Position numbers and translations under genes: made by a program. Below are positions 7,891 to 18,686 of a stretch of DNA of 64,000 nucleotides, in pieces (positions within the stretch are counted from its first letter, which is position 1; each line of letters starts with the position of its first letter). The stretch lies in assembly GCF_988242995.1 (NCBI RefSeq), contig NZ_OZ547043.1, one strand, 5' to 3'. Under the pieces are notes generated by a model. It worked only from the letters and a program-made list of their open reading frames with translations, was not told the origin of the DNA and searched no databases.

Positions 7891-8206
7891 CCGTTTAACT
7901 CCGTGGTTAATGGGTGCAACTATTTTCTGTTGTGCAGAGCATGAGACGCTATTTGCCCTGGATGGTCAGTGGATGAAACAACAGATACAGAAAAGGCGGG
8001 CAATTCGCCCGCATTTCCTAATTTGTACTAACCCAGCTTCCAACTGACAATTTACGTAGCCAAAAAGCTATCAAGTCTGGCAGACTGATTTGTACGAGGT
8101 GTGGATAACCATAATTATGTGCATGCTAACATCACGGTGCATGAGTCAATCGGGTCTATGCCAAAGAATTACGCCTTGATTGACCATAGATTGCTTGCCC
8201 TTGAAT

Positions 8207-8235
8207 TTGACCATTCCAATAAAATGAATTATGAT
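8207..8235 (+). promoter_or_regulatory. Near-consensus sigma70 promoter for cargo gene at 8258
   Basis: -35 TTGACC (8207-8212), 17-bp spacer, -10 TATGAT (8230-8235); followed by GGAGG RBS at 8247-8251. Confidence 0.45.
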
Positions 8236-8257
8236 AATCGTCAAATGGAGGTGCACA

Positions 8258-8902
8258 ATGATCAAACACACCGCAGCAGAAAGGGAAACCAACACTTCAG
8301 CTAAGCTGAATGAATACCAGTTGAACCTTCTGAAAAGAATTAACAACCTCGCTATTTCCCTGATGCCTGAATTTGAAGACAAAAACCAGGCAATTAATGC
8401 TATCACGCTGGATGATAGTTCACTGATGCAATTGCTCTACACCGTTCAACTCGAACAGAAGACTCGTGTCAATGACTACGAACTACGTAAAGTGCGCCGT
8501 CGTCGCGAAAATCTGGAACGATTTTATCGTGGGCTTCAGGAGTTAGGCGGTACGCTAAAGGTAAATGACGTGGTCGATATTCTTGGAATCACCCGCCAGG
8601 CGATCAACATTCGCGTTAAGAAGAACAAGCTTTTAGCATTCAAGCAGAACGGTGATTTTATTTTCCCGAAATTTCAGTTCACAGATAACGGGCTGATTCC
8701 CGGCTTTGAAGACGTAATGGCGGCATTTGACGAGAATACCCATCCAATGCTGAGGTTGGGTGTGCTGAAATCACCAATAGAGGTTAATAGCGAAGGCCTG
8801 AAAAAGACGCCGATTCAAATCATGCAGGACGGCGCTAAAAATAGTGAACTTAGTCTGGCTATCCGTGCCGCTAAACAGTTCGGAAATCATGTATCCAGTT
8901 AA
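8258..8902 (+). CDS. Cargo protein with HTH and C-terminal DUF2384-like (Xre/ParS/MbcA antitoxin-like) region plus a ~110-aa N-terminal extension of unknown function
   Basis: 214 aa from ATG 8258 with GGAGG RBS; HTH-like DILGITRQAINIRVKK; C-terminal HPMLRLGVLKSPIEVNSEGLKKTPIQIM resembles the toxin-binding domain of RES-Xre antitoxins; ~40% GC versus ~52% in flanking phage genes. Confidence 0.55.
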   Translation: MIKHTAAERETNTSAKLNEYQLNLLKRINNLAISLMPEFEDKNQAINAITLDDSSLMQLLYTVQLEQKTRVNDYELRKVRRRRENLERFYRGLQELGGTLKVNDVVDILGITRQAINIRVKKNKLLAFKQNGDFIFPKFQFTDNGLIPGFEDVMAAFDENTHPMLRLGVLKSPIEVNSEGLKKTPIQIMQDGAKNSELSLAIRAAKQFGNHVSS

Positions 8903-8913
8903 TTGTTTTAAAA

Positions 8914-8935
8914 AGAGGGGCTAGCCAGCCCCTCT
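8914..8935. terminator. Terminator hairpin shared by the convergent cargo genes
   Basis: Perfect stem agaggggc / gcccctct with 6-nt loop in the 38-bp gap between the two convergent stop codons; flanked by A/T runs. Confidence 0.5.
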
Positions 8936-16034: not shown

Positions 16035-16487
16035 CTAACGGTCGAGGTGAGCCAGGATAATCTCTTCAATCATCTGTACATCCTCACCGGTGAAGCCGAG
16101 CAGAGGGCGCGCCGGATAATCAATTTTCTTACCGTCTTTCCGGTTTTCTTCCGACAGACCGAACTGATGCACACTGGCGATTTTCGGTGACTTCCCGCCG
16201 TAAAACTCCATTGATGCCTGTTCCGGGCTGGCGCGGATATGCAAAAAACGACTGGTGATAAGTTTCGCAAACATTTTTCGCTTAACACGACCGGTCTTTT
16301 TTCTGGCGCTCTGCTGCTGGCGTGGCGCATAGGGTGTGCCGTCCGGGGCTTTCTGTGCCATCACCCGACGCTGCTGACTCTGTCGCAGACGTTTTGCCAG
16401 TTCGGCACTCAGTCGCCGACGCCCTGATGGTGACAGTGATTCAATCAGCCCGGTCAGCCGGTCTTCAAAACGCTTAAACTCATTCAT
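16035..16487 (-). CDS. S: Tail completion protein gpS
   Basis: 150 aa, P2 S length and position. Confidence 0.9.
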   Translation of the reverse strand: MNEFKRFEDRLTGLIESLSPSGRRRLSAELAKRLRQSQQRRVMAQKAPDGTPYAPRQQQSARKKTGRVKRKMFAKLITSRFLHIRASPEQASMEFYGGKSPKIASVHQFGLSEENRKDGKKIDYPARPLLGFTGEDVQMIEEIILAHLDR

Positions 16488-16947
16488 CCCACTTGCTCAC
16501 CAGTTCGCCATTGATATAAAGCTCCATCGGGCGGGTGACCGGCTCCGGCGGCGGAGGTTCCGGGATATTCTTCACATGCAGTGCGCCGTCCACCTCACTG
16601 ACCAGCGTGCGCTCGGTCAGCATCAGGCTGATGCTGATATCAAAGCTGCTGTCATTGTTGATGTCCGCATAAAACGTGAAGCCCTTTTTCTGGCCTTCGT
16701 CGGTGGTCATGATGTCGGGCTGATTTTCCCGCAGCCACGCCAGCACCGGCACGATGAGCAGGTCAAAATCACCGGTAAAGTCGGTCACAATGACATTGAG
16801 CGTGTAACGCTTTTCGAATGACAGCGACGTCGCCAGTGTGGAGGCAATACTCCCGTTATCCACGAATATCCGCAGCATCTCTGGACTGGTTTTCAGCACC
16901 GTGACGGCATCAGTCAGCGCCCTGCGCAGGCTGTCGGGTTTGAGCAT
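16480..16947 (-). CDS. R: Tail completion protein gpR
   Basis: 155 aa, P2 R length and position. Confidence 0.9.
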   Translation of the reverse strand: MLKPDSLRRALTDAVTVLKTSPEMLRIFVDNGSIASTLATSLSFEKRYTLNVIVTDFTGDFDLLIVPVLAWLRENQPDIMTTDEGQKKGFTFYADINNDSSFDISISLMLTERTLVSEVDGALHVKNIPEPPPPEPVTRPMELYINGELVSKWDE

Positions 16948-17200
16948 CGTTTTCGTCCTGACAGTGTTTAATCATTTTTACCTGGCTGGCACAGCGTGCC
17001 AGCGCGTTCTCAAGCTGCCGGATATCGGCACTTAAATCGCCGTTCTTCTGCGGGTCACTGCCCGGCATCGGGCAAAGACTCACTTTCGGGCAGGCGTTGT
17101 GGACAATCACTGGCGTCGGCGCAGGCCGGGCGCTGGTGCAACCGGCGCACAGCATCAGGCAGGTCAGCACCGTACCAGCGGCGGAAATCTTCGTTTTCAT
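16910..17200 (-). CDS. lysC: LysC (Rz1-like lipoprotein) nested out of frame in lysB
   Basis: 96 aa from ATG 17200 (GAGGT RBS); lipobox-like LCAGCTS signal; embedded in a different frame of lysB as in P2. Confidence 0.7.
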   Translation of the reverse strand: MKTKISAAGTVLTCLMLCAGCTSARPAPTPVIVHNACPKVSLCPMPGSDPQKNGDLSADIRQLENALARCASQVKMIKHCQDENDAQTRQPAQGAD

Positions 17201-17480
17201 TAAGTAACCTCGTGATGGTTTTCTCGCGCAGTGCTTCACGCTTCGCGGCGTTCTCCAGTTCCTGACGCAGTGCCACCTGCGCCAGCTCGTTTTTGTCTGC
17301 CCTGGTGAGGGCAACATGAAGCTGGTTTTTCAGCATGGTGATGGTCGTCTGCTGTTCACTGGCGACGTTGTTCACCCTGTCCAGCGAGGCGCGCAGGCTG
17401 GCGTTTTCATGCTTCGCCAGAAACAGCCCCGCCACCGCCAGCGATAACAACACAACCAGCACAATCATCAGCTTTGACAT
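17055..17480 (-). CDS. lysB: LysB (Rz-like spanin component)
   Basis: 141 aa, N-terminal transmembrane helix then coiled region; P2 lysB position. Confidence 0.8.
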   Translation of the reverse strand: MSKLMIVLVVLLSLAVAGLFLAKHENASLRASLDRVNNVASEQQTTITMLKNQLHVALTRADKNELAQVALRQELENAAKREALREKTITRLLNENEDFRRWYGADLPDAVRRLHQRPACADASDCPQRLPESESLPDAGQ

Positions 17481-17893
17481 GGTTCCCGCCCCTCAAGACG
17501 TTGACGGCAGGCCGTACGTATCAGCCGGAAGAACACCGACGCCACGAGATAAATCAGCGCGGTAAAAATCCACCCGGCAGCGACCAGCGAGATAAATGTC
17601 GCCACCATCACCACCAGAGCCGCCGCCCGTCTGCACCACGGCACCGGCTGCAAAAACAGCGACATGACAATCTTCACGGCCAGCGACTCCGGTGGCAGCT
17701 CCCACCCGTAGCGTTCCAGCGCATACTCAGTGGCATAAACGCCGACACCACCGGCAACCACACAGATAACCGTCGCCAGAATCGCCCAGGCAGCGACAAA
17801 ATTGACGGCCACGCTCTGCGGGTAAATCAGGGACAGTGCCAGCATCAGCGCCAGCGACACGTGCAGCATCAGTGAAAGGGATAATTTCTTCAT
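17468..17893 (-). CDS. lysA: LysA membrane protein (lysis timing)
   Basis: 141 aa, multiple hydrophobic helices; P2 lysA position. Confidence 0.8.
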   Translation of the reverse strand: MKKLSLSLMLHVSLALMLALSLIYPQSVAVNFVAAWAILATVICVVAGGVGVYATEYALERYGWELPPESLAVKIVMSLFLQPVPWCRRAAALVVMVATFISLVAAGWIFTALIYLVASVFFRLIRTACRQRLEGREPCQS

Positions 17894-17907: not shown

Positions 17908-18405
17908 TTAAGCCGGTACGCCGCCAGCGGTACGCCAGACGGTGACCAGTTTTTCCAGTGAATGCTCACGCTGACCGTAACCGGCACCCGGCAGGGACGC
18001 CCAGATATTGCGACAGCGTGAAATGGCGCGCTCAATGCGTCCCGCCCGGATGTCATCCAGTGCACCGCGTTCGCGGATCAACTGAATGGCGAGTCTGTCC
18101 TGCGACAACGGACTGAAATCCGGCAGGGCAAGCTGTTTGCGGTAGTGCGGCCAGAACAGGTAAAGCTGCTGATAGCGACCGGAGGCCGTGGATTTTTCAC
18201 CGCGACGGTTAAACACCTTCGCCGGTCGGCCATGTGCGAACGGGTGGTCACTGTAGTCGGTGAAGATTTCCGGCTTCCCGTCCAGTCCGGTGACTATCAC
18301 GTCATAGCCCCGGTTTTTCGTCAGCGGGTGATTCGCCGTCCCTTCGGACACGGCCAGCATGTCGAGAAAGGCAGCGATATTCTGATGCGTGTTAATTACC
18401 GGCAT
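17908..18405 (-). CDS. K: Endolysin gpK
   Basis: 165 aa, matches remembered P2 K (MPVINTHQNIAAFLDMLAVSEGT...). Confidence 0.9.
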   Translation of the reverse strand: MPVINTHQNIAAFLDMLAVSEGTANHPLTKNRGYDVIVTGLDGKPEIFTDYSDHPFAHGRPAKVFNRRGEKSTASGRYQQLYLFWPHYRKQLALPDFSPLSQDRLAIQLIRERGALDDIRAGRIERAISRCRNIWASLPGAGYGQREHSLEKLVTVWRTAGGVPA

Positions 18406-18686
18406 TACTGTTTCCCCCTGCCCTTAAAGCGGCGCTGAATGGCAATCTCAATCACCTGATAACCGGCGATACCCAGCATGGAGCCGATGCCGCACACCGC
18501 AGGCAGTGACAGGTCAGGAAACTGCACCAGAACAACACCGGCAACCATCGAGACAAAACCACCGAGCAACATGCGCCCGATAAACAGACGCGGGGTGATG
18601 GGTTCACCACCGGCAAGCACCTTGCCGACAACAATCAGCACCCCAATCATGAAAAGCGACAGGACGCTTTTTTCTTCTGCTGTCAT
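18405..18686 (-). CDS. Y: Holin gpY
   Basis: 93 aa, two to three transmembrane segments with charged C-terminus; P2 Y position. Confidence 0.9.
   Translation of the reverse strand: MTAEEKSVLSLFMIGVLIVVGKVLAGGEPITPRLFIGRMLLGGFVSMVAGVVLVQFPDLSLPAVCGIGSMLGIAGYQVIEIAIQRRFKGRGKQ

Follow-up and report, generated by a model that had tools for sequence, protein, structure and literature searches.

What does a 96-codon open reading frame do that begins within lysB, in another frame, and runs on to the start of the tail gene R: is it translated, from which codon, and how are the two genes arranged with respect to each other? We addressed these questions in a 64,000-nucleotide stretch of contig NZ_OZ547043.1 (assembly GCF_988242995.1), referred to as the window. 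With a probability of about 0.95, we read the locus as a two-component spanin pair, lysB and lysC, carried by a P2-like (Peduovirus) prophage that appears complete. The pair is already known, P2 LysB/LysC being a textbook example of a spanin with two components, and the proteins of the window share 94-95% identity with it; no new biology is involved.

The prophage occupies approximately positions 1160-33526 of the window, with its int/C/cox/B/A side at 25-33.5 kb, and its DNA is ~97% identical to P2, Wphi and fiAA91-ss. P2-type prophages with C/Cox are not known to be inducible by the SOS response, and their late promoters can be trans-activated by Ogr or by delta of phage P4. The 2.3-kb cassette around lysC is 97.3-97.7% identical to fiAA91-ss (the best match of the window), Yersinia phage HQ103, Wphi, P2-type Peduovirus isolates and others, and at least 80% of the cassette is covered in 74 phage records. 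Of 5426 complete E. coli genomes, 1603 also carry the lysBC segment, and RefSeq names both genes there. According to the ORF listing and translation, all genes in and around 16910-17480 lie on the minus strand, in the late-operon order Y (holin), K (endolysin), lysA, lysB, lysC, R, S:

18405-18686, minus strand: Y, holin (PF04550 Phage_holin_3_2, 2.6e-42)
17908-18405, minus strand: K, endolysin (equivalent of P2 K by position and sequence; RefSeq 'glycoside hydrolase family 24')
17468-17893, minus strand: lysA, multi-pass membrane protein of 141 aa (phrog_162, 4.1e-66; NF038378)
17055-17480, minus strand: lysB, i-spanin, inner-membrane Rz-like component of 141 aa, ATG to TGA (TIGR03495)
16910-17200, minus strand: lysC, o-spanin, Rz1-like outer-membrane lipoprotein, 96-aa precursor and 76-aa mature form (family matches)
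16480-16947, minus strand: R, tail completion/tail terminator gene (PF06891 P2_Phage_GpR, 6.1e-45; phrog_65)
16035-16487, minus strand: S (ORF listing and translation)

Y, K and lysA all lie upstream of lysC, which is the last gene of the lysis cassette. The 3' end of lysA, described in the P2 record (NC_001895) as 'nonessential; affects timing of lysis', overlaps the start of lysB by 13 nt.

Both overlapping frames encode members of curated protein families. LysC matched NCBIfam NF038368 (P2_Rz1, 'Rz1-like lysis system protein LysC') with 125.6 bits (cut-off 27; positions 2-85 of the 85-position profile) and Pfam PF23793 (LysC) with 56 bits (cut-off 27; profile positions 1-69 of 69). With both scores above their cut-offs, the identification of the 96-aa ORF as lysC, encoding an outer-membrane lipoprotein of the Rz1 type that pairs with LysB, is well founded. 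LysC also matched the spanin family phrog_456 (1e-29). LysB matched TIGR03495 phage_LysB (164.6 bits, cut-off 92.75) and the Rz-like spanins of phrog_89 (2.4e-58), and a Pfam scan of LysB gave no match above its cut-off. LysC is 95% identical to its P2 counterpart, and LysB is 94-96% identical to those of P2 and Wphi (94% to P2).

The following features within the two genes are used below:

17415-17471, minus strand: lysB transmembrane segment (TMD), codons 4-22, LMIVLVVLLSLAVAGLFLA (best 19-aa Kyte-Doolittle window)
17208-17211, minus strand: lysC Shine-Dalgarno sequence GAGG, read off the sequence, 7 nt before the ATG at 17200
17138-17200, minus strand: lysC signal peptide codons 1-20 plus the Cys21 codon (17138-17140), from hydropathy and sequence
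17055-17200, minus strand: lysB/lysC dual-coding zone, 146 nt, encoding LysB 94-141 and LysC 1-49 (last codon partial)
16948-17054, minus strand: LysC-only stretch, 107 nt, from the lysB stop to the R start, by frame coordinates
16985-17003, minus strand: hairpin GCUGGCAC-GCU-GUGCCAGC inside lysC, identical to P2 8399-8417
16910-16947, minus strand: overlap of the lysC 3' end with the R 5' end, 38 nt, R being in the +1 frame relative to lysC

The initial annotation presented lysC as nested, lying entirely within lysB, and the two as an embedded pair of the Rz/Rz1 type. The coordinates refute this, since only the first 146 nt of lysC are within lysB. The start codons are 280 nt apart, which by frame arithmetic puts lysC in the +1 frame of lysB; the stop codons are at 17055-17057 (lysB) and 16910-16912 (lysC), so that the 291-nt lysC starts 146 nt before the lysB stop and ends 145 nt past it, with 146 nt shared with lysB, 107 nt on its own and 38 nt shared with R. 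The claimed overlap with the start of R is indeed there, yet it is at odds with a frame said to lie entirely in lysB. Equally sound was the claim that the P2 lysis-cassette arrangement is reproduced: with lysB at 7922-8347, lysC at 8202-8492 and R at 8455-8922, the P2 reference record (NC_001895) gives the identical 146/145/38-nt geometry, and in the reference annotation of Wphi these three genes agree with the window in length and in overlap. P2, and also Wphi and fiAA91-ss, share with the window the order Y-K-lysA-lysB-lysC-R-S, the lengths of 141 and 96 aa, the +1 frame and the overlaps of 146 and 38 nt.

Three spanin architectures have been defined, embedded (lambda), overlapped (P2) and separated (T4) (PMC6139136), and the overlapped class is typified by the lysB/lysC genes of P2-type phages, as the embedded one is by lambda Rz/Rz1 (PMC6139136 Fig. 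1b; PMC3091744). The stop codon of lysC falls within R in a different frame, and lambda Rz1 is wholly contained in Rz (PMC3091744). In SpaninDB, which forms the supplement of PMC6139136, the entry for Wphi is 'ovl' with an overlap of 146 nt, and LysB/LysC of P2, Wphi and fiAA91-ss are given as overlapped i-/o-spanins with the same 146 nt and the lipobox LCAG. The RefSeq note on lysC likewise reads 'substantially overlapping although not fully embedded'. We also extracted 14 Peduoviridae loci from phages of six host genera, from Escherichia to Burkholderia and Pseudomonas. In all 14, lysC is in the +1 frame relative to lysB, and in none is it embedded; the overlap with lysB is 146-170 nt, the extension past lysB 94-157 nt and the overlap with R 8-88 nt.

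Full nesting of lysC in lysB, as in lambda, would account for the start of lysC inside its partner gene in the +1 frame, as seen for Rz1, which is likewise placed at the end of the lysis cassette. However, 145 of the 291 nt of lysC extend beyond lysB and into the next gene, and the 14 relatives likewise have part of lysC beyond lysB, whereas lambda Rz1 is wholly inside Rz; the literature and the RefSeq note class the P2 type as overlapped, not embedded. Nor did the Pfam scan of LysC detect the lambda Rz/Rz1 family, PF23793 being its only match. We therefore give nesting practically no credence; the architecture of lysB/lysC in the window is overlapped.

The 96-aa ORF itself is confirmed: it occupies 16910-17200 of the minus strand, opens with an ATG, is read in a different frame from lysB and corresponds to the part from Met40 onward of a listed 135-aa ORF (16910-17317). 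Its length is no evidence for a gene, because the same 3.5 kb contain unrelated alternative-frame ORFs of similar or greater size (112-174 aa, including ones of 174, 146, 136 and 133 aa). Such homologue-free ORFs are common enough here to make one consider a chance open frame in GC-rich DNA that is never translated, and the antisense ORFs on the plus strand (16838-17035, 16996-17265 and 17335-17565), which had no Pfam match, point the same way. Against a chance frame stand the family scores of LysC, far over the curated cut-offs, and its conservation. A tblastn search with LysC found 273 phage records, down to 35% identity, among phages of Escherichia, Salmonella, Klebsiella, Yersinia, Burkholderia and Pseudomonas; the protein is kept at the lower end of this range in Burkholderia and Pseudomonas phages. 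The signal peptide, four Cys positions beyond the lipobox and the Shine-Dalgarno box are conserved as well.

The pattern of nucleotide variation also argues for translation of this frame. We compared a P2 group (the window, P2 and Wphi) with a PsP3 group (four phages) in a gap-free alignment. In the LysC-only stretch, where the DNA is free of other genes, 8, 7 and 20 columns were variable at the first, second and third codon positions of lysC, respectively, which is a third-position excess; the other two frames have 2-3 stops there in every phage compared. In the dual-coding zone the corresponding numbers were 7, 20 and 14, lowest at lysC position 1, which is lysB position 2, a pattern as would be expected if both frames were constrained. 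Both frames of this zone retain 69-77% amino acid identity to PsP3-type phages. Taken with the family scores and the wide conservation, these results leave next to no room for a chance frame. P2 gor mutations reportedly map to lysC, and lysBC is said to complement lambda Rz/Rz1 nulls (work of Markov et al., 2004).

The most conserved motif of LysB, ENExxRxWxxxLPxxxxRL (residues 95-114), shares its nucleotides with the LysC signal peptide. We examined the idea that the 'cheap' side of this overlap is the one encoding the signal peptide; it was only weakly supported, as the conservation of LysC residues 1-20 (0.70) is about equal to that of the rest, and it was set aside. LysC of the window and of P2 differ by the substitutions K2R, S6F, R25P, H34P and K52T (relative to P2), four of which are in the dual-coding zone and the last a little beyond the end of lysB; over the 44 C-terminal residues the two proteins do not differ.

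The claim that lysC has its own ribosome-binding site holds, with GAGG separated by 7 nt from the ATG at 17200. Over the 25 nt that precede lysC, GAGG included, the window is identical to the P2 string in SpaninDB, and the context of this box, acGAGGttactta, is common to P2, Wphi, PsP3, SI22, PHB48, MDG45 and Kp4887-2. RefSeq, in contrast, starts the protein at Met16 (17155), giving an 81-aa product of the PGAP pipeline that begins MLCAGC. A real lysC that starts at this codon is what the RefSeq CDS of 246 nt (81 aa) in E. coli EC77 implies, and 34 of 120 cluster representatives start there too. However, Met16 is preceded by gtacggtgctgacctgcctgATG, which contains no Shine-Dalgarno-like sequence. 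The product would have only five residues before the lipobox Cys, lacking the charged n-region and hydrophobic core of a signal peptide, so that export and lipidation would be impossible. Moreover, residues 1-15 are conserved as protein, with the pattern M-K/R-x-K/R..A.G...L, in 14 of 14 lineages, each of which also has a GAGG or GGAG box ahead of the gene. Met1 is likewise the start given in SpaninDB and in the P2 reference record. For these reasons we favour Met1 (17200), which is the likely true start, and consider initiation at Met16 very improbable. We rejected a start at the ATG at 17317, which would give a 135-aa protein, because the Pfam match starts only at residue 55 of that form and because Wphi has a stop directly before the Met1 codon.

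The N-terminus of LysC reads MKTKISAAGTVLTCLMLCAG/CTS, the slash marking the end of the 20-residue signal. The predicted signal comprises a basic n-region (Lys2 and Lys4), a hydrophobic h-region (residues 5-20) and the box L17-C18-A19-G20/C21-T22-S23. This box is off consensus, with Cys18 at -3 and small residues at -2 and -1, and it matched neither the PROSITE PS51257-type pattern nor the DOLOP pattern [LVI][ASTVI][GAS]C; the strict patterns fail because of Cys18 at -3. The lipoprotein signal of the initial annotation is thus borne out in its n-region, hydrophobic run and conserved Cys21, but its box departs from the consensus at -3.

Whether this departure matters can be judged from relatives. 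Cys21 is invariant in the 14 phages, and among 120 cluster representatives, 116 of which cover the position, it is present in 114; Thr is at +2 in 115 of the 116. Leu takes the place of Cys at position 18 in the Yersinia, Fels-2-like, Burkholderia ST79 and Pseudomonas relatives, whose boxes are LSGC, LPAC and LAGC. Residues 7-24 of P2 LysC, comprising the h-region and lipobox, are identical to those of the window, and for P2 LysC SpaninDB states 'LipoP server finds cleavage site at 20 and 17 ... No hit by Prosite', with a lipobox LCAG, a signal of 20 aa and a mature protein of 76 aa (PMC6139136). Since Cys21 and the Ala-Gly at -2/-1 are conserved, relatives have Leu at -3, and the LipoP calls listed in SpaninDB are positive, we did not count the failure of the strict patterns as a refutation. 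At the level of sequence, the comparison across relatives settles Cys21 as the Cys that would matter. The initial annotation was to be given up if careful analysis yielded no lipobox; the analysis yielded a deviant one, L-C-A-G/C21. In E. coli lipoproteins generally, Asp at +2 causes Lol avoidance, and LysC has Thr22 at this position and no such Asp, in keeping with sorting to the outer membrane. The predicted mature LysC is 76 aa long, contains 8 Pro (10.5%) and has four further conserved Cys, at 37, 43, 70 and 80.

The predicted anatomy of the two proteins is that of an i-spanin/o-spanin pair. LysB has a single strongly hydrophobic segment, residues 4-22 (mean Kyte-Doolittle hydropathy 2.99), and is otherwise hydrophilic. 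Its AlphaFold model, built from a 14-sequence alignment, shows one long helix (3-95), short helices at 97-104 and 109-115 and a low-confidence tail, with a mean pLDDT of 79.6 and values of 82-95 over residues 41-100. In the LysC model a signal helix (6-17) is followed by an extended Pro-rich coil (18-52) and a helix (53-88, pLDDT ~86-94), most of which is encoded by the LysC-only stretch; the C-terminus is modelled as an amphipathic helix and then a disordered tail. Searches of PDB sequences with LysC and LysB found no solved relative, and the weak matches of LysB were to coiled-coil proteins only. SpaninDB gives Wphi LysB as 74% helix with two coiled-coil segments (PMC6139136). We also considered a unimolecular spanin of the T1 gp11 type and rejected it, as LysC has no hydrophobic C-terminal segment and ends in ...QDENDAQTRQPAQGAD.

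From this topology the following mechanism may be proposed. LysB would be held in the inner membrane by its N-terminal anchor and extend into the periplasm as a long helical rod. LysC would be translated from its own GAGG/ATG, sited inside lysB in the +1 frame, and would be exported by a signal-peptidase-II-type signal; Thr-Ser after Cys21, with no Asp at +2, would fit sorting to the outer membrane. Mature LysC would consist of a Pro-rich extended segment followed by a helix of ~35 residues. By analogy with lambda Rz/Rz1 and with work on P2 LysB/LysC, the lipidated protein would reside in the inner leaflet of the outer membrane and bind the periplasmic end of LysB, forming a complex across the periplasm. 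After removal of the peptidoglycan mesh by holin and endolysin, a change in the shape of this complex could fuse or disrupt the outer membrane, which would be the final step of lysis. Lipidation, outer-membrane location, a need for the protein in disrupting the outer membrane and the complementation of lambda Rz/Rz1 were all reportedly described for P2 itself by Markov and colleagues in 2004. Direct experiments on the spanin mechanism are almost all on lambda Rz/Rz1, and the steps past topology are taken from the lambda Rz/Rz1 and P2 work (PMC6139136, PMC3091744).

An older annotation, 'lysis control protein', makes LysB and LysC regulators of lysis timing rather than disruptors of the outer membrane, and the P2 and Wphi records carry the corresponding notes 'nonessential; affects timing of lysis' and 'regulation of lysis'. 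A transmembrane segment with a helical rod on one protein and a lipoprotein topology on the other are, however, signals of an i-spanin and an o-spanin, and the curated names are now Rz-like and Rz1-like. A nonessential phenotype is not at variance with a spanin either, as spanin defects seem non-essential in the laboratory, where, in media with no added divalent cations, the outer membrane is sheared by shaking (PMC6139136). We regard a purely regulatory role as extremely unlikely and retain the spanin reading.

In general design LysB/LysC resembles lambda Rz/Rz1, which also pairs a type-II inner-membrane protein having a helical periplasmic domain with a small Pro-rich outer-membrane lipoprotein, but there is no detectable sequence-family match between lambda Rz1 and LysC. 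Mature lambda Rz1 has ~40 aa and is much richer in Pro than the 76-aa mature LysC, which has 10.5% Pro and a long C-terminal helix. In the lambda-like phage KS5, Rz1 has 46 aa and 26% Pro (PMC3091744). Closer to the window are Burkholderia KS14 and KL3, Fels-2/SEN8 and the Pseudomonas Citexvirus (phiCTX-like) phages, which have the same overlapped architecture and protein family, with overlaps of 158-170 nt with lysB and 8-88 nt with R. Their LysC proteins, at 35-47% identity, share the lipobox Cys, the C-x5-C pair, the Asn of the NGDL motif (the Asn alone being invariant) and the Cys-bearing helix; their lipoboxes are canonical or differently deviant (LSGC, LAGC, LPAC, LCAC).

At 8399-8417 the P2 record has a feature labelled 'putative transcription attenuator; O operon', and the identical 19 nt are found in the LysC-only stretch of the window, where they fold as an 8-bp stem. 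No T-run follows the stem, and the terminator scan did not detect the hairpin; the 4 terminator-like sites that it did find, against 2.2 expected, are at chance level, with none at the annotated attenuator. A promoter scan gave 0 sites. Among the PsP3-type and more distant relatives compared, none outside the P2/Wphi group conserves the hairpin, and a structured RNA was dropped as a candidate for this reason. Two additional roles could be imagined from the sequence, which we think unlikely: the deviation of the box LCAGC, with its Cys18 and Cys21, might have a function instead of being incidental, and, separately, attenuation or translational coupling through the hairpin and the 38-nt overlap of lysC with R might determine how strongly lysis genes are expressed relative to tail-completion genes. 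If both of the SPase II sites that LipoP reportedly finds in P2 LysC were used, there would be two alternative lipidated forms.

The practical value of the analysis lies in annotation hygiene: the pair should be classed as overlapped, and lysC given its likely start at Met1 (17200; 96 aa). Public records of lysC often hold an 81-aa protein without signal peptide, a 52-aa stub or nothing at all, and flagging such pairs can correct them. That lysC is easily missed by annotators, as had been suggested, agrees both with PMC6139136, which says likewise, and with the many records in which the gene is omitted or shortened. It is given as 'not annotated' for fiAA91-ss, and the lysC CDS is absent from the records of L-413C, Yersinia vB_YenM_06.16-2 and Pseudomonas D14A. 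RefSeq carries the 81-aa form from Met16, and the records of SI22, PHB48 and MDG45 contain only the 52-aa stub.

The P2-like (Peduovirus) prophage that carries the lysis genes apparently is complete, occupying about 1160-33526 of the window on the minus strand. Across the genes for structure and lysis it matches Peduovirus isolates at 96-97.5% identity, and a further region is placed as follows:

about 25.0-33.5 kb: int/C/cox/B/A/old-side region of the P2-like prophage

RefSeq/PGAP annotates lysC as an 81-residue protein beginning at Met16 (MLCAGC...; window 17155, minus strand; L014:1546-1791, the 246-nt span of the call in E. coli EC77), a start shared by 34 of the 120 representatives of LysC protein clusters. 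With this start the signal peptide is lost. The upstream Met1 (17200, minus strand) is conserved and preceded by a Shine-Dalgarno box. In other phage records, lysC is reduced to a 52-residue stub or left out.

The nucleotides that encode the LysC signal peptide (17138-17200; LysB residues 94-114) also encode the most conserved motif of LysB, ENExxRxWxxxLPxxxxRL, which contains all six residues invariant in LysB across the 14-phage alignment. In one LysC homologue, P0013 (a single-member cluster from a contig of 1016 nt), Tyr replaces the lipobox Cys21 (…LILCAGYTS…), and of the two cysteines only Cys18 is retained; the substitution may be an error of sequencing, a sign of prophage decay or an indication that the alternative site is used.

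The labelling of another gene of the lysis cassette also deserves comment:

17468-17893, minus strand: lysA (NF038378, 'DNZ54_00345 family'), whose product is hydrophobic and crosses the membrane several times

In PHROGs and in phage records of RefSeq, lysA goes under the name 'endolysin', which looks like a propagated mis-annotation; the P2 record states that lysA affects lysis timing, and in the literature it is described as an antiholin.

Between the lysB stop and the start of R, where lysC alone is encoded, lies a perfect 8-bp stem:

16985-17003, minus strand: hairpin GCUGGCAC-GCU-GUGCCAGC

No T-run was found 3′ of this hairpin, and its conservation is limited to the P2/Wphi group. It is identical to that of P2, whose record carries the feature 'putative transcription attenuator; O operon'.
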